This document shows positions 15,937 to 54,647 of a stretch of DNA of 64,000 nucleotides, one piece after another. The notes below the pieces were generated by a model. It had not been told where the DNA came from, did no database searches, and was given only the letters and a program-made list of their open reading frames with translations. Made by a program: the position numbers and the translations under genes. Numbering within the stretch: position 1 is the first letter of the stretch; each line of letters opens with the position of its first letter. Source of the DNA: Candidatus Jorgensenbacteria bacterium (lineage in GTDB: Bacteria; Patescibacteriota; Minisyncoccia; UBA6257; GWB1-50-10); contig JAUSHK010000001.1 in NCBI GenBank assembly GCA_030648515.1, positions 9,688-73,687 of the forward strand, written 5' to 3'.

Positions 15937-16008
15937 CTGGGAGACCAGGATTCGAACCTGAATTCACGGCTTCAAAGGCCGCTGTCCTACCATTAGACGA
16001 TCTCCCAA
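15937..16008 (-). tRNA. tRNA-Gln(UUG)
   Basis: Manual fold: U1:A72 acceptor stem (TGGGAGA/TCTCCCA), G73 discriminator, D-stem GTCT/GGAC, anticodon loop CUUUGAA, T-arm TCAGG-TTCGAAT-CCTGG. U1:A72 with G73 matches the E. coli tRNA-Gln identity elements. Confidence 0.8.
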
Positions 16009-20059: not shown

Positions 20060-20065
20060 GATTAA

Positions 20066-20105
20066 TTTAGTATCTAGTATTTAGTATAAAGTATCTAGTA
20101 TATAT
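20066..20105. repeat. Heptanucleotide tandem repeat (TAGTATN)x5 in the ftsE-ftsX spacer
   Basis: TTAGTATC TAGTATT TAGTATA AAGTATC TAGTATA TATC. Confidence 0.7.
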
Positions 20106-20154
20106 CTTTTCTGTTTTGCATTCATACGTGATACTTTCTACTTGATACATGCTA

Positions 20155-20841
20155 CTACCCAATGAGAAACCTCCCGTGTTCCTCGTCGCGTACAACCTTT
20201 CCGTCTTCAAGCGTGATGACCCGCTGGCCAAGCGTGTTTACAATTTCCTTGTCGTGCGTGGCAAGAAGCACGGTGCTCCCCAACTCGTTGATTTTCATTA
20301 AAATCTTTATAACCTCCCATGTGTTCAGTGGATCCAGGTTTCCGGTCGGCTCGTCGGCAATAATAAGGTCTGGGCGGTTAATCATCGCGCGGGCAATTGC
20401 AACGCGCTGGCGCTCCCCTCCTGAAAGTTCTGTTGGAAAGTTCTTTGCCTTGTCTGTGAGTCCAACCATCTCAAGAACCTGCGGCACAAATTCGTTTATC
20501 TCGCGTTGCGGTCTGCCGGCAACCTCAAGCGCGAATGAAAGATTTTCAAACACCGTTTTCCGCGTGAGAAGACGAAACTCCTGAAAAATGACGCCGATAT
20601 GCCGCCGGTATTCCGGCATGTCGCTCGGCTTCAACTTATTGACTTCGTACGAACCAAAAAAAATCTGCCCCTTGTCGGGCTTGTCTTCGCCAATTAAAAG
20701 TTTCACCACGGTTGACTTACCCGCTCCCGAACGGCCGACAATAGAAACAAACTCGCCGTGCTGGATTTTGAAGCTGACTTTGTCCAAAGCAACCGTCCCG
20801 TGGTGGTTGTACTCCTTGGTTACGTGTTGAAAGATGATCAT
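20155..20841 (-). CDS. ftsE: Cell-division ABC ATPase FtsE
   Basis: GRSGAGKST, LSGGERQRVAIARA, IIADEPTGNLD. Confidence 0.9.
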   Translation of the reverse strand: MIIFQHVTKEYNHHGTVALDKVSFKIQHGEFVSIVGRSGAGKSTVVKLLIGEDKPDKGQIFFGSYEVNKLKPSDMPEYRRHIGVIFQEFRLLTRKTVFENLSFALEVAGRPQREINEFVPQVLEMVGLTDKAKNFPTELSGGERQRVAIARAMINRPDLIIADEPTGNLDPLNTWEVIKILMKINELGSTVLLATHDKEIVNTLGQRVITLEDGKVVRDEEHGRFLIG

Positions 20842-23153: not shown

Positions 23154-24500
23154 TTAAACTGAATTGCGTGTTTTCTTAAAAACTGCGACAAATAAAACTG
23201 AGACGAGTAAAAGAATAACGGCCAGCACGATAACATCAAGTGGGGTACCTTTTTCAACGGGAGATAATCCTGTATTAGGAAGGCTGGGCGCAGACACAAG
23301 GACGGTGGCGAAAGCATAGCCTATTGCGGTAAAACCATTTGCCTCGCCCTCGGCCGTAGCTACATTTCTGGTTGAAACTGGAACATTTGTTTTGCAGGTA
23401 TATGTCCATATTTCTCCTGGATCAAGCAAATTATTACTATTAGCATCACCGCCTGACACGCGGGAAACCGGACCGCATTTATCGTCAGTAACAGTAACAC
23501 CGCTCATCGCAACCACACCCGGGTTCGTTACGGTGTATGTATATGTAACATTACCTCCCCCAAATGAAAACGGGGTAAGACGACTCGGCACTTTTATAAT
23601 GTTAATAAGCGGAGGCGTTAACGGCTCGCCGACAACAACCGTGGCAATCGCAGTAGCGATTGCGACCTGGCGAAACCCGTCATCGCTGTATCCAGTTGCA
23701 ACTGCTGTGTTTGTAGTTGTCTTTGATAGAGTTTTAGTGCAACTGAATTTCCAAATTTCGCCTGGATCAAGCTTGTTATTACTGTTCAAATCACCAGAAA
23801 GCAGAACTATAGGACTGCACGTATCTCCTTTTATTGAAACATCGGTCAATGCTTGCTTGCCCCCAACATTCCAAACCGTGTAGTTGTACGTAACCGGACC
23901 AAATCCTCCGGGCAAAGCAAGCGGCGTAGGAACTTTAAGTATTCCAATTAATGGGGTCCTAATAACAGAACCGCCTCCGCTACCGCCGCTAATAGGATCT
24001 GATGCTACCTCGGGCAAGGGCGGAACATACGTGTTAGTAATTGTACAAGTTTTATCCTGACCCGCAGAAAGTGTTACGCTACCGCCAGAATTACAGCCTC
24101 CGCTCAAGATTCCTGTATACGAGGTTTTGGCATCTTCGCTTACTATATATGTGCCAGCAGAAAGTGAGTATGAGGTTCCAGGATCATCAGTCCCTGCTTG
24201 CGGACTTCCTGAAACTTCAGCTCCTCCTGAGAGCGTCACATGCAAACTAAAGTTGGCCGGAAGCGCTGTGCCACCGCCAGTATTCACCACCGCCTTAATG
24301 ACATGGAGGGTAGCCAAAGTTGAAGCAATGGTAACGGTAGCTGAAACGCCCGAGCTATTTGACGAAACAACTATGCCGGACCCGGCTACCGCATCGGTAG
24401 TTGCAACAAGCCGCGCCGTTAAAGTGTTCCCGCCGACAACGCCTGATCCGAGATTATATGAATACAAAATATTTAATGTAGAATTGGACGCAATTTGCAC
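23154..24500 (-). CDS. LPNTG-anchored surface protein with two DUF11-like repeat domains; no signal peptide at the annotated start
   Basis: C-terminal LPNTG, hydrophobic segment and KKTRNSV tail. Two ~100-aa repeats (VTY.YTV.N.G...SGD.NSNN.LDPGEIW.Y.C). A stop lies 3 codons upstream of the ATG in frame. Confidence 0.65.
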   Translation of the reverse strand: MQIASNSTLNILYSYNLGSGVVGGNTLTARLVATTDAVAGSGIVVSSNSSGVSATVTIASTLATLHVIKAVVNTGGGTALPANFSLHVTLSGGAEVSGSPQAGTDDPGTSYSLSAGTYIVSEDAKTSYTGILSGGCNSGGSVTLSAGQDKTCTITNTYVPPLPEVASDPISGGSGGGSVIRTPLIGILKVPTPLALPGGFGPVTYNYTVWNVGGKQALTDVSIKGDTCSPIVLLSGDLNSNNKLDPGEIWKFSCTKTLSKTTTNTAVATGYSDDGFRQVAIATAIATVVVGEPLTPPLINIIKVPSRLTPFSFGGGNVTYTYTVTNPGVVAMSGVTVTDDKCGPVSRVSGGDANSNNLLDPGEIWTYTCKTNVPVSTRNVATAEGEANGFTAIGYAFATVLVSAPSLPNTGLSPVEKGTPLDVIVLAVILLLVSVLFVAVFKKTRNSV

Positions 24501-25380: not shown

Positions 25381-27003
25381 CTAAATTGCCCACTCCTTTC
25401 GAGCAAGGAAGAACGAGAGCAAGCCAACAAGTACCACTATTGGAGCAACAGTACCCCATGGAATATTGTCGTCAGAACCAATTCCTGTATTTGGCAATTT
25501 CGGCGAGGTTACCACAACAACAGCAGTAGAAGAATCGGAAGTGGTTAAGCTATTGGCGCCTCCGGTTGCCGTAGCTGTGCTTATAGTATTTGTCGTTGGA
25601 TTTGTCTGACAGGTATATGTCCACGTCTCCGAAGCATCGAGCATATTATTATTATTGACGTCGCCAGAATGACCAGTAATCGGGCTGCACTTATTATCGG
25701 AAATACTCACATTGCTTAAGGCGGCTGTGCCGGGATTGGTTACCGTGTACGTATAAGTAACTGCTTTGTTGGACGGAAGAACGAACGCGTTCGGCTTTAC
25801 TACAAGATGAATTAATGGGGGCGGTACTGCTGCCGCACCGACGACAACCGTTGCATTTGCGGTATCAATCGCGGTGAGGCTGTTAGCCTGACCAGTCGCG
25901 GTAACGGTGTTTGTGGTGGTTTGCGTGAGTGTTGTTGCGCAGCGGTATTTCCAAGTTTCACTGATATCAAGCTTCGAATCGCCATTAGTGTCGCCCGAAA
26001 CAAAGCTTATAGTTGGACATTTATCATCGGCGAGCACGACATTACTCATTGCGACTGCTCCGACATTCAAAACCGTATAATCATACGTAACTAATCCGGA
26101 TCCGCCCGGCAATGCCAGCGGAGTTGGAATTTTAGTAACATTGATTAATGGCGGGACAAGTGTTGTGGTAGGAGTTGGAGTTGTAGTCGGGGTTGGTGTG
26201 GGAGTCGGGGTTGGAGTCGGAATAGGAGGAACAACCGAACCAACAGGGACTGAAACTGCGCTTGCATCAAGCGTAACCGCGGTCTGCGCAAGCGCTCTGC
26301 CGTTTAATGTTGCGCCGGTATTTAGCGCAATAGCTGTCTGATCTAATATATTTCCATTGAAAACGGCTGTCGTCCCGATTGTTGTTTGTCCAGCAACCTG
26401 CCAGAAAATATTAGCTGCCTGCGCACCGCCAGTCAGATTAACATGGGCTGCGGAACTCACAGTGAGATTTTGCGCTACCTGGAAAATCCAAACATCACTT
26501 GCGCCGCCTGAAAGAGTAACATCGGTTGGTATGGTAACGTTAGTGCTCCACTTATAAAGCCCTGGCGCAAGCGTCATTCCGCCGATATTTCCTGAACCAA
26601 GCTCAGTCGCGGTCGGGTTTGTTCTTCCCGCGGCATCAGTGTAGGCAGTTTGCATGTCGCTTACGGCCGTGGTCATCGTAGTTGGAGTAGGAACCGCGTA
26701 GTCAGCCGCATATACTCTTCCAGTTACTAACGGCGACGTCGAAAACGCGTTTGAGGTATCTATTATCAATCCAAATCCGGTTATTGCACTTGCGGCAATT
26801 GGACTCACCCCGATGTTTCCGGTAATTAAAGTGGTTCCCGTGGTTGAAATCCCCGACTTTGCAAGAATTACAAAACTACCTGCCGACCCGAGATTTACTG
26901 CCGCCGGACCGGCCGCGAACGCGGCGATTGGCGCGAGCGAACCAAGCGCCAAAGAAACCGACAGTATAGTTACTACCAACGAATTCTTATTGAATTTTTT
27001 CAT
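25381..27003 (-). CDS. LPNTG-anchored surface protein: DUF3494 (ice-binding-like) domain, Pro/Thr linker, two DUF11-like repeats
   Basis: The N-terminal ~250 aa matches the DUF3494 pattern (GSAGSFVILAKSGISTTGTTLITGNIGVSP...GGMTLAPGLYKW...VWIFQV...NIFWQV...NGRALAQTAVTL). A PTPTPTPTPTPTTTPTPTTT linker follows, then two repeats as in 23154-24500, then LPNTG and a TM segment. Confidence 0.7.
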   Translation of the reverse strand: MKKFNKNSLVVTILSVSLALGSLAPIAAFAAGPAAVNLGSAGSFVILAKSGISTTGTTLITGNIGVSPIAASAITGFGLIIDTSNAFSTSPLVTGRVYAADYAVPTPTTMTTAVSDMQTAYTDAAGRTNPTATELGSGNIGGMTLAPGLYKWSTNVTIPTDVTLSGGASDVWIFQVAQNLTVSSAAHVNLTGGAQAANIFWQVAGQTTIGTTAVFNGNILDQTAIALNTGATLNGRALAQTAVTLDASAVSVPVGSVVPPIPTPTPTPTPTPTTTPTPTTTLVPPLINVTKIPTPLALPGGSGLVTYDYTVLNVGAVAMSNVVLADDKCPTISFVSGDTNGDSKLDISETWKYRCATTLTQTTTNTVTATGQANSLTAIDTANATVVVGAAAVPPPLIHLVVKPNAFVLPSNKAVTYTYTVTNPGTAALSNVSISDNKCSPITGHSGDVNNNNMLDASETWTYTCQTNPTTNTISTATATGGANSLTTSDSSTAVVVVTSPKLPNTGIGSDDNIPWGTVAPIVVLVGLLSFFLARKEWAI

Positions 27004-27446: not shown

Positions 27447-27449
27447 AAA

Positions 27450-27490
27450 CTACCAGCTGACCTGCCTGCGCAGGCAGGGCTAAGGTGGCG
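27450..27490 (-). repeat. Partial duplicate of the tRNA-Thr(CGU) 5' end (22 nt) split by an 18-bp palindrome
   Basis: Minus strand reads GCCACCTTAGC-[CCTGCCTGCGCAGGCAGG]-TCAGCTGGTAG, 3 nt upstream of the intact tRNA whose first 22 nt are GCCACCTTAGCTCAGCTGGTAG. Confidence 0.7.
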
Positions 27491-27526
27491 GATATCAAAA
27501 ACTCTACCACGAAGGGCAGAGTTTTT

Positions 27527-28054
27527 GAAGTAAGTCATAAGCCGGATTCTGTTTATACAATAATTTATCTGGGACCACGATTACTCGCGGACTCGAGCGG
27601 CATTTCCAGTGAGTAGTTAGTAGTTTGTAGTTTGTAGTTGCCTACTCACTACTCACTATTTACTACAAACTAGACACAGCCTTGCACTCAGGTAAGGATT
27701 TAGCCGTTTCATTTCCGCTTTTTTATCCCTATAGCGGAATTAGGCCACCTAGCTTGGGATTGGGCCTCCGCGTAAAGCTTTCGCTACGCGGCGTCACTGC
27801 TCGCACCTCTATCCTTGTCCGGCCTAAACCGCTTTCGCGGTCGGCTTAGGACTTGAGACGACGGGCGTTACCCGCTACCCTTTCCGATACCACTTTTGTA
27901 ACCAAGACACTGGCAAATATGCAACCTCTACTAAAACTAAAATTCGAATTGTCTTTCCATACTCAGTTACAAAAGCGGTACCGGATAAGTGTCCGGACTT
28001 TCCTCTCCTCAGCTCGCTCTGAGCTTGCCGAAGAGCTATTGCTTGACTTACTGG
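27527..28054 (-). ncRNA. rnpB: RNase P RNA (bacterial type A) carrying a heptad-repeat hairpin insertion
   Basis: P1 pairing AGTAAGTCA/TGACTTACT, P4 strands GAGGAAAGTCCGGAC and ACAGAATCCGGCTTA, and other conserved blocks (GGGTAACGCC, AGGTGCGAGCAGTGACGCCGCGTAGCGAAAGC). About 528 nt, longer than the usual 350-400. A terminator hairpin lies at 27495-27526. Confidence 0.8.
27608..27673. repeat. Inverted pair of (TNNGTAG)x4 heptad repeats forming a ~66-nt hairpin inside rnpB
   Basis: TGAGTAG TTAGTAG TTTGTAG TTTGTAG followed by its near-reverse complement CTCACTA CTCACTA TTTACTA CAAACTA. Confidence 0.75.
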
Positions 28055-29351: not shown

Positions 29352-30479
29352 TTATTTCAGCGCCTCCACGCCTGGCAATTTTTTACCCGACAAAAACTCA
29401 AGCATTGCGCCGCCGCCGGTGGAAAGAAACAAATTAGTTGGTAGTTCGTAGTGAGTAGTGAGTAGTTTAAGAGAAGCGAGTGTATCACCGCCGCCGACAA
29501 CTGTGTGGGCTTTTTTATTAGCAAGAACGGCTTTCCAAACTGCCTGCGTCCCCTCTTCGAATCCCTTTTTCTCAAACATTCCCATCGGCCCGCTCCAGAT
29601 AATTGTTTTCGCGCCTCGAATAATTTTCACATATTCTTTTGTAGTTTCGGGCCCGATGTCTAAAACTTTCGTCCCTTTCATTTCTACGTCCGTCGGTAAA
29701 ATAACATCCGGAGAAAACGCGTATTTTTTCACTTCATCAAGCGAGTTGTAATCCACAAGCGAATCCCCCATTGGAACTCCTTCCGCCGCAAGCATCGTGT
29801 TTGCCGGCCCTCCACCCAAAAGAAACTTATCAGTGCGCCCCCAAAAGTTTTTGATGACACCGAGCTTATCTGAAATTTTCGCCCCTCCAATAATTACTAC
29901 AAACGGCTTTACGCGTCGTTTCATAATTTTCCCGAGTTCAACTAGCTCTTTATTGAGATGTGGCCCCGCAAATGACGGCAGAAATCGCGTGACACCGGAA
30001 AGCGACGCGTGCGCTCTATGTGAAACGCCGAACGCCTCATTTACATAAAAATCCCCTATGCTGGCAAGCTCTTTCGCGAACTCTTTATCGTTATTTTCTT
30101 CCCCTGACGAATACCTGAGGTTTTCAATAAGAAATAGGCGCGCGGGCGCGCTGCGGACTTCTTTTTTGATATTTTTAAAATTATGTTCAGAGGAAAAGCG
30201 TATCGGCTCCATGAGTTCCTGCGAAAGAAACTTCGACATACTGTGAAATGAGTATTTCTTGTCTCCAAAAAACGCCGGCCGCCCCAGGTGTCCTATGAGA
30301 ACTACGCGCACGCCATTACTTAGTAAAAGTCGGACGGTTTCCATTACCGCTTGAAGCCGCAACGAATTTTTCCGTTCCCTGTCGGGAACATCCAAATCCG
30401 CCCGCAACAAACAAACTTTCCCTTTGTATTGTTTCAAAACCTTCGGAGTCAAAATACGCATGGACTTATAATACAGCAT
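29352..30479 (-). CDS. pgk: Phosphoglycerate kinase
   Basis: Full-length PGK homology. The C-terminal STGGGAMLEFLSGKKLPGVEAL is preceded by a heptad-repeat-encoded KLLTTHYELPTN. Confidence 0.9.
   Translation of the reverse strand: MLYYKSMRILTPKVLKQYKGKVCLLRADLDVPDRERKNSLRLQAVMETVRLLLSNGVRVVLIGHLGRPAFFGDKKYSFHSMSKFLSQELMEPIRFSSEHNFKNIKKEVRSAPARLFLIENLRYSSGEENNDKEFAKELASIGDFYVNEAFGVSHRAHASLSGVTRFLPSFAGPHLNKELVELGKIMKRRVKPFVVIIGGAKISDKLGVIKNFWGRTDKFLLGGGPANTMLAAEGVPMGDSLVDYNSLDEVKKYAFSPDVILPTDVEMKGTKVLDIGPETTKEYVKIIRGAKTIIWSGPMGMFEKKGFEEGTQAVWKAVLANKKAHTVVGGGDTLASLKLLTTHYELPTNLFLSTGGGAMLEFLSGKKLPGVEALK
29434..29467. repeat. (TNNGTAG)x4 heptad repeat inside the pgk 3' coding region
   Basis: TTGGTAG TTCGTAG TGAGTAG TGAGTAG. 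The antisense strand encodes KLLTTHYELPTN. Confidence 0.7.
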
Positions 30480-31149: not shown

Positions 31150-34670
<3,521 letters not shown>

Positions 34671-37918: not shown

Positions 37919-37957
37919 TACCGCTGACCTGCCTGCGCAGGCAGGGCTAAGGTGGCG
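37919..37957 (-). repeat. Second partial tRNA 5'-end duplicate split by the same 18-bp palindrome
   Basis: Minus strand reads GCCACCTTAGC-[CCTGCCTGCGCAGGCAGG]-TCAGCGGTA. The GCGGTA D-loop matches the adjacent tRNA-Thr(UGU), not the CGU copy. It lies ~90 nt 5' of that tRNA. Confidence 0.7.
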
Positions 37958-38012
37958 TATCTCATAAAACTATCAAACTAAACCTTAAAAATCAAAAAGG
38001 GCCGGCACTGCA

Positions 38013-45093: not shown

Positions 45094-45744
45094 TTACATA
45101 GTACCGAACTTCCTAATGAAGGTCAATCGGTGAATATCCGAGGGGCCGTATTTCACAAGCGCCGCGATGTGCGCCCGCGTCCCATACCCTTTATGAATAT
45201 GAAAATTATACCGCGGATACTTTTTGTGCAGACGCGCCATTCGCTTATCCCGCGTCACTTTCGCGACAATTGAGGCAAGTGAAATAGCTGGGATTTTCTC
45301 GTCGCCCTTGATGATAGTTTGTAGTTTGTAGTTGGTAGTGAGTAGTTTTGGAAACTTATTAACATAAAGTCCTCCATCTAAGAAAACTCTAGTTCCCGAA
45401 ATGGAGATTTTATGTTTTGTAATGAGTTTTTTAAACGCGCGGGTTGCCGCAAGATTCGCCGCTTGTGTGATGTTTATTTTATCAATAACTCTCGGCGAAA
45501 CACTCGCTATTGCGTATGGTATTTTCTTTTCTTTCACCCATTGAAACCACGTCTCTCTTTGCTCTGGTGATAGTTTCTTTGAATCTCTTAGGCGTATAAC
45601 ACCTTTTTTCTTTTTCTGAATACTAGGTACTTTATACTTTATACTTGATACTCGTCTCGGCAATGCAACAGCCGCGACGGTTACTGGCCCCGCAAGCGGC
45701 CCGCGCCCGACTTCATCAATGCCGATGATCCAATGCCTTGCCAT
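45094..45744 (-). CDS. rnhB: Ribonuclease HII, with two repeat-encoded in-frame insertions
   Basis: GIDEVGRGPLAGPV, DSKKLS, KGD...ASIVAKVTRD. Extra segments VSSIKYKVPSIQKKKKGV and KLLTTNYKLQT are encoded by heptad repeats. Confidence 0.85.
   Translation of the reverse strand: MARHWIIGIDEVGRGPLAGPVTVAAVALPRRVSSIKYKVPSIQKKKKGVIRLRDSKKLSPEQRETWFQWVKEKKIPYAIASVSPRVIDKINITQAANLAATRAFKKLITKHKISISGTRVFLDGGLYVNKFPKLLTTNYKLQTIIKGDEKIPAISLASIVAKVTRDKRMARLHKKYPRYNFHIHKGYGTRAHIAALVKYGPSDIHRLTFIRKFGTM
45318..45345. repeat. (TNNGTAG)x4 heptad repeat inside rnhB
   Basis: TTTGTAG TTTGTAG TTGGTAG TGAGTAG. Encodes KLLTTNYKLQ on the coding strand. Confidence 0.7.
45619..45652. repeat. (TACTTTA)-type heptad repeat inside rnhB
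   Basis: AATACTAGG TACTTTA TACTTTA TACTTGA TACT. Encodes part of the extra VSSIKYKVPSIQ segment. Confidence 0.65.
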
Positions 45745-47719: not shown

Positions 47720-47891
47720 TTTCCATACTCCTTTTGTTTAGATTGCGTACAATCTGAATTAAATAAAACTAGGTGCATAATAGCACGCGACTATGTTTAT
47801 GTCAAATATCTACAACATCGAAATTGACTCATAGAAAAAACTTTGAGAATGAACTACAATGCTGACTGAAATAACCAATTACTAATTTCTA

Positions 47892-50800
47892 ATGCCAAAT
47901 GAAATGCCTCTCCCTACGGGAGATGTCCAGAAGGGACATAAATTCATCCACCTCCATGTCCACTCTCACTATTCCCTACTTGATGGGCTGGCAAAAATTG
48001 ATGACATTATAAAGCGCGCAAAAGAACTTGAGATGGACGCGGTTGCCTTAACTGACCACGGCAACTTATATGGCGCGATTGAATTTTATAAAAAAGCGAG
48101 AAAAGCAAAAATAAAACCGATAATCGGAGTTGAGGCGTACATCGCGCCGAACGGCCGTCTCCAGAAACGCGCCGGGGTTGACGATGAGCGCTACCACCTG
48201 ACGCTTCTCGTAAAAAACCAGGCAGGGTGGAAAAACTTAATAAAATTAGTAACGATCGCAAACTTGGAGGGCTTTTACTACAAACCGCGAATAGACAAAG
48301 AACTTCTCGCGGAATACCACGATGGGCTCATCTGCCTCTCTGGATGCTTTGGAAGCGAATTTCAGCGGTTTCTTACCTCGCGGCGTTATGGCGACGCCGA
48401 AGCGCTCGCCTCGTGGTACAAATCAATCTTTGGCGATGATTTTTATATTGAACTCCAACAACATACAAAAAACACGCACGAGGCCGCCATGGCGATTTCA
48501 AAAAAATTAGACATTCCCGTTGTGGCAACACAGGACGTGCACTACGCGTCGCGCGATGACAAGATGGCGCATGAAATTCTTCTCGCCGTCCAAACCGGGG
48601 GAAAACTGGACGATGCCGACCGGCTTACGCTTAAAAATTATGACCTTTCTCTTCTTTCCGCTGACGAAATGATGGAAATTTTCAAAGACATTCCGGAAGC
48701 TGTGGAAAATTCCATAAAAATAGCTGAAAAATGCAATCTTGAGATAGAGCTCGGAAAAACAAAGATTCCAAAATTTATCCTGCCGGACGGAGAAATAAAT
48801 CCGTTTGAATATCTAAAAAAACTCGTCTACGAACGCCTGCCGACGCGGTACCCCGATGCATCAAGCACAGTTGACGACCGCGTAAAGCTGGAACTTTCTG
48901 TTGTTGAAAAAACAGGATTTGCCGATTACTTCCTGATTGTGCAGGACTTTGTGAACTGGGCGAAAATGCATGGCATCGTGGTAGGCCCCGGCCGCGGCTC
49001 TGCCGCCGGCAGTATTATTTCCTATATTCTACGCATTACGAATATTGACCCACTAAAATACGATTTGCTTTTTGAAAGATTTTTAAATCCCGACCGCATC
49101 CAGGTTCCTGATATTGACTTGGACTTTACGGACATTCGGCGCGACGAGGTTGTTTCATACGTGCGCGACAGGTACGGCGCGGACCGCGTCGCGCAAATAA
49201 TTACATTCGGAACTATGGCGGCAAAAGCGGCAATCCGCGACGCCGGCCGCGCCCTCGGAATGTCCTACGCATTCTGCGACACAATCGCGAAACTTATTCC
49301 CTTTAACCCGACGCAAGGCATGAAAGAGGGCTGGCTTGACCAATGTCTTAACGAAGTAAAAGAACTCAAAGATATTTATGACAAAGATCCGGAAGCAAAA
49401 AGATTGATAAATTCAGCGAAAAAACTTGAAGGCGTTGCGCGGCACGCGTCAGTCCACGCGTGCGGCGTTGTGATATCGCCTGAACCGCTTACGAATTTCC
49501 TCCCGCTTCAAAAAGCTCCGCAGGGCGAGGACGCCGTCATCACGCAGTTTGAAATGCACAGCGTTGAAGACCTGGGGCTTTTGAAAATGGACTTTCTGGG
49601 ACTCAAAAACCTGACGATTATTGAAAAAACATTGCGGCTTGTGCGCGACCTCCGCGGGGAAGAAATAAATCTTGAAACGATTCCGCTTGATGATAAGGCC
49701 GTTTTTAAACTCGTCTCGGACGGCAACACGACCGGCGTCTTTCAGTTGGAATCTTCTGGCATGCGCCGCTATCTCAAGGATTTGAAGCCAAGCGAGCTTG
49801 AGGACATGATTGCTATGATTTCTCTCTACCGCCCGGGACCTATGGACCTTATCCCGAGCTACATCGCGCGGAAGTTCAAGCGCGAGCCGGTTACCTATCT
49901 CCATCCGAAACTTGAACCGATTTTAAAGAATACCTATGGCGTCGGCATTTATCAGGAACAGATGATGCGCATCGCGCGCGACCTTGCCGGCTTCACGCTC
50001 GCTGAAGCGGACACGCTCCGTAAAGCCATCGGAAAGAAAATTAAAGAACTGCTTGCGGAACAGCAGGTAAAGCTCATCGACGGCATGATAAAGAACAGCA
50101 TTGACCCGCGCACCGCAAAAGCGATTTGGGAACTTTTCCCGCCGTTTGCCCGCTACGGCTTCAATCGCTCGCACGCCGCATGCTACGCGATGATAAGCTA
50201 CGAAACCGCGTATCTCAAAGCGCATTATACTGTTGAATTTATGACGAGCTTGCTGAACGTTTCCGGCACGGAAATAGAAAGAATTAATTTCTTAATTCAT
50301 GAAACAAAGCATATGGGCATTCAGGTGCTTCCGCCTGACGTGAATCAAAGCTCGCAGGATTTCACGCCTGATGGGAAAAATATCAGGTTTGGATTACTCG
50401 CCATTAAAAATCTTGGCGCGAATATCGTGAACATCATTATCGAAGAGCGCGGAAAAGGCGGGCCGTTCTCCGACTTATCAAGTTTCTTAAATCGGGTTCA
50501 GCACCGCGACCTTAATAAAAAATCGCTTGAGGCGCTCATTAAATCAGGCGCGTTTGATTCGCTTGGCGCCGAGCGCGGACAGATGCTCGCAAATATTGAT
50601 GAACTTATTCACTTCAATCAAAACGCCCGCAGGCTTTCTTCGTCAAACCAATCAAGTTTATTCGGCGGCATGGCGACATTCGCAAGCGTGCGATTGAAAC
50701 CATCGGCGCCGGTCGCTAAAAGCACAATGCTCGTGTGGGAAAAAGAACTTTTGGGCATTTACGTGTCCGAGCATCCAATGGACGCATTTAAAGCGAGCAT

Positions 50801-52880: not shown

Positions 52881-53020
52881 AAAATAAATCCCCGCGCCAT
52901 ATACTCAACTTTTAAGAATCCTCGTAGAGGATTGGGTATTAGTGTGGGAATAAAAAAGCCCCAGTGTCTAGTATATATAATACGGACACCGAGGCTTAAA
53001 ATAGTTGGCCGAGCGGAGAA

Positions 53021-53549: not shown

Positions 53550-54647
53550 ATGTCAATCCCAACAAAAACCCGTAAACTAATTGTCGTCCTGGGCCCCACA
53601 GCGAGCGGGAAAAGCGACTTGGCGGTTGAAATCGCAAAACACCTGCCTCCTGCATGCGCAGGCATGGCGCAGGCAGGCCTTAACGGCGAGATTATTTCCG
53701 CCGACTCTCGCCAAGTTTACCGCGGAATGGACATTGGAACTGGCAAGGTCCTACGAGATCATCGCACTCATACTAGATACGAGATACTTGATACTAAATA
53801 CTTGTACCGCGGCATTCCCCATCATCTTCTAGACGTCGCGAGTCCAAAACGAACATTCACTGTCGCGCAATACCAAAAACTTGCACGAAAAGCGCTTGAG
53901 GATATTTGGAAGCGTGGTAAGCTCCCGATTATCTGCGGAGGAACGGGGTTTTATATTCAATCAGTCGTTGACGGGCTCGTTCTGCCGGAAGTAGGACCAA
54001 ATCCCCTGCTTCGTAAAAAACTCGCGAAGAAAACAACGGATGAACTTTTTAGAATGCTTAAGAAAAAAGACCCGGCACGCGCAAGAACCGTTGATTCAAA
54101 AAATCGCGTCCGGCTAATCCGTGCCATTGAAATAGCGGAGACACTCGGAAAAGTTCCGAAGCTCAAAACCACACCCGTAGAAGCCGACATGCTCATAGTA
54201 GGAATAAATCCGGATAAAAATCTTCGTCCGGCAAATGATGTAAAAATGGATACCATTTTCCCAAAAAGTTCCAATCCTGAAGGTGGTATGACATGTCATA
54301 CCACCTCCGCATCAATAATTTATAAAACAGAAAATGCGCCCAAACTCCGGAAACGTATCTTGAAGCGGCTCCTGAAACGCATTGATGAAGGAATGATTGA
54401 GGAAATTGTACGCCTTCATAAAAACGGCGTCTCATGGAAAAAGCTTGAATCATTCGGGCTTGAATACCGCTACGGCGCGCTCCTGCTCCAAAATAAAATA
54501 TCGCGCGGTGAATTCATAAAACAGCTTACACACGCCATCAACCAGTACGCCAAGCGCCAAATGACATGGTTTAAACGCGATAAGCGGATACATTGGATTA
54601 AAAACGAGAAAGAAGCGCTCCGACTTACAAAACAATTTGTAAAATAG
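53550..54647 (+). CDS. miaA: tRNA dimethylallyltransferase MiaA, with a palindrome-encoded in-frame insertion
   Basis: P-loop GPTASGKS, then ISADSRQVYRGMDIGTGK. The 11-aa insert PPACAGMAQAG lies between the P-loop helix and ISADS. Confidence 0.85.
   Translation: MSIPTKTRKLIVVLGPTASGKSDLAVEIAKHLPPACAGMAQAGLNGEIISADSRQVYRGMDIGTGKVLRDHRTHTRYEILDTKYLYRGIPHHLLDVASPKRTFTVAQYQKLARKALEDIWKRGKLPIICGGTGFYIQSVVDGLVLPEVGPNPLLRKKLAKKTTDELFRMLKKKDPARARTVDSKNRVRLIRAIEIAETLGKVPKLKTTPVEADMLIVGINPDKNLRPANDVKMDTIFPKSSNPEGGMTCHTTSASIIYKTENAPKLRKRILKRLLKRIDEGMIEEIVRLHKNGVSWKKLESFGLEYRYGALLLQNKISRGEFIKQLTHAINQYAKRQMTWFKRDKRIHWIKNEKEALRLTKQFVK
53643..53678. repeat. Extended variant of the GC-rich palindrome inside the miaA coding sequence
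   Basis: CCTGCC-TCCTGCATGCGCAGGCATGG-CGCAGGCAGG, about 36 nt in frame. GC content is far above the local background. Confidence 0.65.

Follow-up and report, generated by a model that had tools for sequence, protein, structure and literature searches.

Dispersed heptanucleotide tandem arrays in housekeeping genes, the RNase P RNA gene and an intercistronic spacer of a Candidatus Jorgensenbacteria genome

The stretch analyzed here, 64,000 nt of a Candidatus Jorgensenbacteria bacterium (assembly GCA_030648515.1, contig JAUSHK010000001.1, positions 9,688 to 73,687 of the forward strand; referred to as the window, with all positions counted from its first letter), carries short tandem arrays of a 7-nt unit in the genes for phosphoglycerate kinase (pgk), RNase HII (rnhB) and MiaA (miaA), in the RNase P RNA gene (rnpB) and in the spacer between ftsE and ftsX. 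Repeats with a heptanucleotide unit were first reported in 1990, and polymerase slippage is, to our knowledge, the sole mechanism so far offered for their origin. The short tandemly repeated repetitive (STRR) heptamers of cyanobacteria are said to have been described by Mazel in 1990, and Vioque reportedly found in 1997 that they lengthen helix P12 of the RNase P RNA, are dispensable in vitro and differ between close strains, which carry unrelated STRRs. The units of STRR1-3 are CCCCAGT, TTGGTCA, and CAACAGT. Repetitive extragenic palindromes (REPs) carry a conserved 5' GTAG that is bound by the REP-associated tyrosine transposase (RAYT), and IS608 targets TTAC. Rickettsia palindromic elements (RPEs) of ~100-150 bp are found in frame in conserved protein and RNA genes, at structurally tolerant places.

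Heptamers are, as Mrazek 2007 is summarized in PMC4679880, the most abundant long simple repeats in most prokaryote genomes, for which slippage on a 7-nt contact was proposed; a 7-bp unit is therefore not unusual and repeats of this kind are not rare, contrary to what a first-pass annotation of the window, made from its letters alone, had supposed. Vioque 1997 (NAR 25:3471) places STRR heptamers inside rnpB of heterocyst-forming cyanobacteria. TAACTGA repeats of Beggiatoaceae, cyanobacteria, and Bacteroidetes occur in sets of 2-6 with a patchy phylogenetic spread, some of them in open reading frames (ORFs) at tolerant positions and in orientations limited by stop codons (MacGregor 2015, PMC4679880). 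The (GGGANTN)n repeats of Xanthomonas are heterogeneous, mostly made of four units, sometimes inverted and variable between close species, and GGGGA(T/C)T repeats are present in Nostoc (Rehm 2015, PMC4692102). REPINs are inverted REP doublets with a variable spacer, which form hairpins in single-stranded DNA (ssDNA) or mRNA (Bertels and Rainey 2011, PMC3116915). Our literature search found no paper on heptamer repeats in the Candidate Phyla Radiation (CPR)/Patescibacteria. The arrays of the window belong to the dispersed heptanucleotide tandem repeats and are STRR-like; what appears to be new is the CPR setting, the coding and RNase P P16/P17 hot spots with turnover of the repeat type, the synonymous conservation of the core, and a polarity rule for inverted pairs.

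Period-7 arrays of the window

The best matches of Pgk, RNase HII, and MiaA were Candidatus Jorgensenbacteria proteins (each with 100% identity) and the host is a groundwater Patescibacterium (CPR). Exact-protein look-ups aimed beyond the ends of the window gave no record for gyrB and, for a 266-aa ORF, no more than a short contig contained in the window. Arrays were located by a motif-free autocorrelation scan, in which segments of 21 positions were retained when at least 16 bases equaled the base found 7 positions further on, with local shuffles as controls. Lag 7 yielded eight arrays in 64 kb compared to ~0.1 in locally shuffled sequence, while the other lags between 4 and 15 yielded 0-1 arrays each, except for lag 14 (four arrays), which is the second harmonic of 7. 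The pattern (TACNNNN)3TAC was matched 11 times in the window (0.00 expected) and the three-unit pattern 18 times (0.12 expected), all 18 matches being situated within known arrays, and Tandem Repeats Finder (TRF) returned period 7 with 3.6-4.9 copies and 81-94% matches, i.e., imperfect units. The heptamer arrays are real and highly non-random, and four of the eight are placed inside protein-coding genes (Table 1). The stretch at the dnaE start passed only the lenient lag-7 scan and was missed by the TAC patterns. Five of the six sites listed by the first-pass annotation (rnpB, pgk, two in rnhB, and the ftsE-ftsX spacer) were recovered as arrays; the sixth, near 52965, proved to be a lone TAGTATA unit inside a small GTGTC/GACAC hairpin, and both the miaA array and the partner arm of the ftsE-ftsX spacer had been overlooked.

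Table 1 Coordinates of the heptamer arrays and of rnpB in the window, with the intervals returned by the lag-7 scan
Feature	Position	Strand	Units	Coded residues or remark	Lag-7 interval
ftsE-ftsX spacer arm	20064..20104	-	(TAGTATN)5, GTAT-type on + strand		20064-20104
ftsE-ftsX partner arm	20125..20156	-	ATACGTG ATACTTT CTACTTG ATACATG CTACTAC	below lag-scan threshold, recovered by motif scan	
rnpB, RNase P RNA, bacterial class A	27523..28054	-		RF00010 RNaseP_bact_a, cmscan, full model 1-367	
rnpB hairpin 3' arm	27605..27641	-	RNA CUACAAA CUACAAA CUACUAA CUACUCA		27605-27643
rnpB hairpin 5' arm	27642..27673	-	GUA-type RNA CUAGUUUGUAGUAAAUAGUGAGUAGUGAGUAG; + strand: CTACTCA CTACTCA CTATTTA CTACAAA		27638-27666
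pgk array	29433..29469	-	CTACTCA CTACTCA CTACGAA CTACCAA CTAATTT	LLTTHYELPTN, residues ~338-349	29433-29469
rnhB array at 45308	45308..45348	-	CTACTCA CTACCAA CTACAAA CTACAAA CTATCAT	KLLTTNYKLQTI, including KLLTTNYKLQT	45308-45348
rnhB array at 45619	45619..45658	-	opposite orientation; mRNA GTATCAA GTATAAA GTATAAA GTACCTA GTATTCA	RVSSIKYKVPSIQ	45619-45658
Marginal period-7 stretch	47874..47901	.	TTACTAA TTTCTAA TGCCAAA	overlaps dnaE start codon; doubtful member	47874-47901 (marginal)
miaA array	53768..53803	+	ATACTAG ATACGAG ATACTTG ATACTAA ATACTTG	THTRYEILDTKYL	53768-53803

When 40 units were aligned in one orientation, the counts were 40/40 for T (position 2), 39/40 for A (position 3) and 36/40 for C (position 4); position 1 was occupied by A or C, T prevailed at position 5, and the last two positions (6-7) were variable, resulting in the window consensus [A/C]TAC[T]NN with 4-6 units per array. 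Two sub-types could be distinguished, CTAC[T/A/C][C/A]A (pgk, rnhB at 45308, and rnpB) and ATACT[A/T]N (ftsE-ftsX spacer, rnhB at 45619, and miaA). The 5' arm of the rnpB hairpin shares 17 identical nt with the pgk array and the 3' arm shares 20 nt with the rnhB array at 45308. The window arrays were shown to be one sequence family within the genome, which agrees with the earlier view of a single dispersed, near-identical family, and the 17- and 20-nt identities suggest copying between arrays of the window.

Because 7 is coprime to 3, [x]TACNNN arrays give one peptide pattern in all frames, translating as x-[L/I/V]-[L/P/H/Q/R]-x-T-x-Y. The likeness between the peptides coded in pgk (KLLTTHYELPTN) and rnhB (KLLTTNYKLQT) is due to the DNA repeat itself and therefore offers no extra evidence; the two sequences had been given correctly in the first-pass annotation but called antisense, while both genes are encoded on the minus strand and the peptides result from sense reading. 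CTAC-type arrays are placed in the window genes in sense orientation only, and the lone antisense array is of the GTAT/GTAC type. This sense-only placement fits the reverse unit GTAG, since three such units suffice to bring a TAG into all frames. A periodic UAG site of the HutP/TRAP-like kind was also considered and rejected, as the invariant part of the unit is GTA/TAC and not TAG.

Orthologous sites, turnover and polarity

The closest relative genome was represented by loci from Hainich groundwater (L125, L184, and L178), with ~77% nucleotide identity in genes. In the predicted structure of PGK (mean pLDDT 89.2) the array corresponds to a helix end plus a loop of ten residues (pLDDT 79-82), at a position where non-CPR PGKs have an ordinary short helix-loop. 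TAC-type arrays in the register of the window were found in pgk of L002, L143, L003, L004, and L182, with units almost identical to those of the window in L002 and L143 (53% protein identity) and ATAC units in L003 (84% protein identity) and L004 (67%). Loop length and register are constant across these six TAC-type sequences, whose pairwise difference at third-codon positions was 0.13 in the TAC core, 0.58 in the rest of the array and 0.58 in flanking codons; the sequences were picked by a peptide signature that leaves the third positions of the core free, except for the Tyr codon. The T or A of the core is fixed at ACT/GAT/AAT and at ACT/ATT/AAT/GCT codons, where the amino acids are T/D/N and T/I/N/A/K. 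As far as these six genes go, the array core was shown to be held constant at the nucleotide level, which gives some support to a possible role as a recognition site, as the first-pass annotation had proposed. That annotation had also considered that orthologues might encode similar residues with unrelated DNA, and it was found that pgk orthologues carry the same periodic DNA.

The same pgk loop holds other heptamers elsewhere, i.e., AATTTCA x5 in L181, TAACTCA-type units in L180 and TCTCAAA-type units in L125, as well as period-10 ACGGAT/ATCCGCG repeats in L126-L131. The array of L001 is identical to that of the window, although L001 may come from the same sample, and no simple copy-number variant of one array was seen between the window and the relatives compared. 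Small repeats other than heptamers (the period-10 repeats and the palindrome TCCGCCAGCTGGCGGA) at the pgk and rnhB loops of other CPRs are in frame where coding.

The AlphaFold model of RNase HII has a mean pLDDT of 81.5, with drops at both array-coded segments (63-64 at 45308 and 52-59 at 45619). Relative to E. coli RNase HII (7uwe), the first of these is longer by 7 aa and the second is a 15-aa insertion, and the rnhB segment is indeed extra, as stated before. At the 45308 loop, rnhB of L179 carries (ATACAAG)n, while L178 and L184 have the palindrome TCCGCCAGCTGGCGGA in place of the array. L178 and L184 have an array homologous to that at 45619, in which every base of the GTA core is conserved (15/15), whereas the three fully variable positions per unit differ at 7/15 between the window and L178. 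A third array, of the TTAC type, is present in rnhB of L184 (residues ~105-117). The miaA array corresponds to 14 extra residues relative to the PDB MiaA structures 3d3q and 2qgn; its loop is missing in P0252 and P0272, and it is of the ATAC type in the window versus CTACTCA-type units in L184. Insertions of 7 and 14 aa equal 21 and 42 nt, i.e., whole triplets of heptamers. The idea of in-frame inserts in RNA and protein genes holds for rnpB and rnhB, with miaA and the spacer likewise extra, but not for pgk, in which the loop has the same length in CPR orthologues and the array is no insertion.

Rfam matches in the window at the gathering threshold comprised six tRNAs together with a 5S rRNA and a 23S rRNA that carries a group I intron. 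The match to rnpB (74 bits, E=1.8e-22) surfaced only in a more permissive search and the gene would go unannotated because its score is below the Rfam gathering score of 100. Outside insertions, it is 93-95% identical to rnpB of L125. Its two inverted arms, closed by a GCAA loop, fold into a hairpin (27605-27673; -36.4 kcal/mol over 101 nt, z=-3.9) with the shape of a rod, whose short stems (4-6 bp each) are set apart by internal loops of 2x2 or 3x3 nt. In the covariance-model alignment this hairpin falls on the P16/P17 element and is flanked on either side by a strand of P15. Rather than the heptamer hairpin, L125 has a native P16/P17 stem-loop of ~27 nt, which the hairpin of the window replaces, so that the net gain is ~34 nt and not the ~70 nt assumed when the inverted pair was first noticed. 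An unrelated heptamer hairpin (CAACNAA/TTGTNNG; -58.8 kcal/mol, z=-7.6) occupies P16/P17 in L182, and period-10 ATGCGAA/TTCGCAT inverted repeats are located there in L180 (15360-15466). Arrays of this kind depress covariance-model scores, as in rnpB, and put low-confidence loops into otherwise conserved CPR proteins.

Three further observations were made on rnpB. Several pairing registers, shifted against one another, are open to the arms of the hairpin (27608-27677; inverted repeats I8, I9, and I11), which makes it a structurally slippery rod. The orientation of the gene relative to the flanking RNase H gene and tRNA is inverted between the window and L125 (3965-4530 in the latter), and L125 rnpB has its own 65-nt insertion (alignment columns 214-278), absent from the window.

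The ftsE-ftsX inverted pair occupies the entire spacer, which measures 96 nt from the stop of ftsE to the ATG of ftsX in the window and 5 nt in L125; ftsE itself terminates at the TAG contained in the first GTAG unit of the mRNA. Alignment with the empty L125 site revealed no target-site duplication and no conserved termini. Leaving aside the doubtful dnaE stretch, this pair is the only one of the window arrays close to a start codon. The pair folds with -22.6 kcal/mol (z=-2.1), or -20.8 kcal/mol (z=-3.3) on 101 nt, and the z-scores of the rnpB and ftsE-ftsX inverted pairs range overall from -2.1 to -4.1. Sense and antisense folds of four hairpins had similar energies (-28.5/-24.9, -20.8/-21.9, -32.6/-32.2, and -32.3/-29.3 kcal/mol), a likeness that does not set RNA-level selection apart from DNA-level selection. 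The non-coding sites of the window hold inverted pairs, and the arrays at coding sites are single, with no inverted partner.

Taken across the sites aligned with relatives, arrays were shown to be gained, lost, and replaced between close relatives, and to recur at the same few permissive places, namely loops at the surface of three enzymes (PGK, RNase HII, and MiaA), the P16/P17 element of RNase P RNA, and intergenic spacers. In ~0.5 Mb of metagenome loci recovered with a PGK query, lag 7 gave 47 arrays versus 2-14 at lags 5-12; the unit types were particular to each contig and many arrays were arranged in inverted pairs. A scan of GTDB for MTACNNN x5 returned at least 120 loci, and the matches listed include Bacteroidota, Acidobacteriota, Cyanobacteria, Planctomycetota, and Saccharibacteria; as the pattern pre-selects TAC, this indicates that arrays are widespread and not that TAC is special.

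Inverted TAC-type pairs with arms up to 150 nt apart were counted in loci L005-L184, which cover several phyla (Saccharibacteria to Acidobacteriota; 19 pairs outside the window), and in the window (20069-20155 and 27613-27666). All 21 (20 scored plus rnpB) read 5'-GTA arm...TAC arm-3', with gaps of 4-113 nt between the arms, and the opposite order (TAC arm...GTA arm) was found in 0 of the 21 pairs across these phyla. The polarity is no artefact of orientation, because the arrangement is unchanged by reverse complementation.

Relation to described repeats and possible origin

With STRRs the window arrays have in common the dispersed short 7-nt tandem arrays, the extension of a peripheral RNase P RNA helix as a hairpin, and a helix of rnpB in which relatives have either no repeat or repeats of unrelated sequence (here L125, L182, and L180). 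They differ from STRRs in the strict sense by their unit ([A/C]TAC[T]NN), their Patescibacteria host and their position at P16/P17 (the STRR helix reportedly being P12), as well as by being degenerate with a fixed core of 3-4 nt and by having half of the arrays translated in frame in housekeeping enzymes. Head-to-tail 7-nt units over-represented relative to other periods, the hallmark of the heptamers treated by Mrazek, are found in the window too. The resemblance to the Xanthomonas/Nostoc repeats comprises heterogeneous units with a conserved core, about four units per array, some inverted pairs, and variation in sequence and length between close species at the same intergenic site; those repeats are, however, G-rich, proposed to form quadruplexes and mainly intergenic, while the window arrays are A/T-rich, have a TAC core and are located in coding loops and a ribozyme gene. 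TAACTGA repeats are also direct heptamer repeats found partly in ORFs, and a related TAACTCA-type array is present in the pgk loop of L180, but they are mostly placed just upstream of start codons and, within proteins, at the periphery, the window arrays contain no TAACTGA unit, and neither a case in rnpB nor nucleotide-level conservation at orthologous internal loops is reported in PMC4679880.

Like RPEs, with which the first-pass annotation had compared them, the arrays are in frame at tolerant sites (RNase HII gains 15 and 7 aa, MiaA 14 aa), although the coding arrays are direct tandem repeats of 35-42 nt and not palindromic, the in-frame palindromes of miaA being separate from them. The inverted doublets of rnpB and ftsE-ftsX form hairpins as REPINs do and the placement is similarly intergenic or intercistronic, but REPs are extragenic GC-rich palindromes of ~20-40 nt, as opposed to heptad arrays of which 4/8 are inside genes. 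Membership tests led us to reject STRR in the strict sense, RPE, REPIN, and contingency locus, each as the identity of these arrays.

On balance, we regard it as probable, by a modest degree, that the arrays are a self-propagating family of simple repeats rather than devices of the host, amplified by slippage, spread by short-patch copying and filtered by reading frame, stop codons, and structure. A 7-nt seed would be amplified through slipped-strand replication, after which existing arrays could seed new ones via short-patch templated copying (template switching or ectopic conversion); such copying would keep the core uniform and let whole arrays change type together, and fold-back during copying would give rise to inverted pairs. 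Within genes, an array would survive only if the number of bases that it adds is divisible by three (7 or 14 aa, with +15 aa in the alignment of the rnhB array at 45619), and selection would spare only stop-free orientations and only flexible loops, while hairpin pairs could survive only outside coding sequence, as a longer peripheral RNase P helix or an intercistronic stem-loop. Several points weigh against this account. Undirected fold-back should yield both polarities and cannot explain the strict one observed; plain slippage cannot homogenize a coding array without changing the loop length, and the pgk loops are constant; the constancy of the pgk core beside saturated synonymous sites, judging from the aligned genes, looks like purifying selection on a DNA/RNA motif or like a directed process. 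Moreover, none of the proposed copying steps was directly observed and no copy-number polymorphism was seen (L001, with an identical array, may be from the same sample).

The difference of 0.13 versus 0.58 at third positions where the pgk amino acid varies, the 15/15 unchanged GTA core of the rnhB array at 45619 beside 7/15 changes at its variable positions, the polarity of 21/21 pairs across phyla and the exact fit of the ftsE-ftsX pair between stop and start codons would all be expected if the GTA/TAC arrays were functional cis-elements, i.e., candidate sites that a nucleic-acid-binding factor particular to the lineage would bind or process in DNA or RNA and that selection retains, persisting in essential genes like DNA uptake sequences, with the hairpin pairs acting as intercistronic stabilizers or terminators. 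Cold-shock proteins, reported to bind one heptamer per protein (PMC4679880), could be read in the same direction. Nevertheless, orthologous sites hold AATTTCA, TAACTCA, TCTCAAA, palindromes, or nothing, and a function would therefore not be tied to the site; the closest relative has neither the rnpB nor the ftsE-ftsX hairpin, the hosts are unrelated in function with no common theme, no candidate factor was identified, and sense and antisense hairpins fold about equally, therefore leaving no G-U signature of RNA-level selection. We consider a cis-element tentative and rather unlikely. The fixed 5'-GTAG...CTAC-3' polarity also matches the layout of REPINs (PMC3116915), and the ftsE-ftsX pair resembles a clean presence/absence insertion of ~91 nt; together with dispersed copies sharing 17-20 nt identities, this is what miniature mobile elements moved by an ssDNA transposase (REP/REPIN-RAYT or IS200/IS605-like) might produce, with the inverted pair as the mobile unit, GTAG/xTAC as the recognition or cleavage motif and single arrays as decayed halves or footprints. 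A Pfam scan of 46 ORFs, which covers the window and hence 64 kb of the genome, detected no transposase-like gene, Y1/HUH transposase, RAYT, or reverse transcriptase, but only a type I R-M system, an AbiEii toxin and a serine-recombinase-like ORF in a low-GC island, and the missing target-site duplication and conserved termini at ftsE-ftsX, the arm gap of 4-113 nt, the single arrays inside genes (half of those in the window, whereas REPs are extragenic), and the change of array type at one site with no change in length, unlike transposition, make such elements doubtful.

A tandem unit whose length is not a multiple of three is the classic layout of a frameshift switch, and contingency loci, in which slippage-driven copy number turns genes on and off, had been raised by the first-pass annotation. 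We hold them to be very improbable here: heterogeneous units (81-94% matches) suppress slippage, the arrays reside in rnpB and in housekeeping genes present as single copies (pgk, rnhB, and miaA) instead of surface or restriction genes, a change by one unit would shift the frame, and the loop is constant in six pgk sequences, with the array identical in the second assembly (L001). A conserved peptide motif that merely happens to have periodic DNA could draw on the weak L-x-L...P-x-N pattern conserved in the pgk loop of many orthologues; with zero matches expected by chance, the same units in a non-coding RNA and a spacer, and core third-codon positions fixed where the amino acid varies, we find chance or a protein-level by-product scarcely credible.

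That different Patescibacteria have different heptamer types in one RNase P helix and in corresponding loops of three enzymes (PGK, RNase HII, and MiaA) amounts to a natural experiment, and the turnover of types, the synonymous constancy of the core, and the polarity are together hard to square with undirected slippage. It is conceivable, though in our judgment improbable, that the arrays are the substrate or product of a dedicated, widespread machinery (e.g., a Y1/HUH-type ssDNA enzyme or a heptad-reading nucleic-acid-binding protein), by which [G]TA[G/T]NNN arrays would be written or maintained with fixed polarity and a core constant at synonymous sites. If true, this would make heptamer repeats a genome element of a new class, one that is actively maintained. 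The question of machinery or function in heptamer repeats becomes testable by comparative genomics and simple biochemistry.

Other features of the window

Palindromes other than the heptamer pairs were also noted. The GC-rich palindrome CCTGCCTGCGCAGGCAGG is present in three copies (27447-27486, 37925-37958, and 53645-53678), two of which are part of a ~40-nt unit resembling the 5' end of the neighboring tRNA (GCCACCTTAGC-palindrome-TCAGC...), while the third is degenerate and doubled, located in miaA, and corresponds to a 12-aa in-frame insertion (LPPACAGMAQAG) relative to PDB MiaA. The motif CCTGCGCAGGC with at most one mismatch had 6 matches versus 0.83 expected in the window. MiaA has in addition a window-specific in-frame insertion of ~40 aa (residues ~222-263, at ~54213-54340), absent from 12/12 aligned orthologues, which holds a perfect 26-nt palindrome (AGGTGGTATGACATGTCATACCACCT) with no second copy in the window.

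The 23S rRNA gene is ~3.5 kb long (31157-34658) and includes a group I intron at 31452-31670 (RF00028, 51 bits) as well as further expansion segments; introns or a LAGLIDADG ORF are likewise present within the 23S genes of L143 and L181. There is no 16S gene adjoining the 23S in the window, and a PCMT gene is situated upstream. The first 16,000 nt form a low-GC stretch (36-40% up to ~10 kb) with genes for an HTH protein, an AbiEii toxin, a fused type I restriction-modification (R-M) methylase/specificity subunit, and a type I R subunit, as well as a serine-recombinase-like ORF that abuts a tRNA (15937-16007), and it looks like an integrated defence island. The regions 25381-27003 and 23154-24500 include the gene of a large secreted-type protein with an ice-binding-like domain (PF11999, E=4e-79) and DUF7507, adjoining a sortase and a SpaA-like protein, a neighborhood that suggests a pilus or surface-protein cluster.

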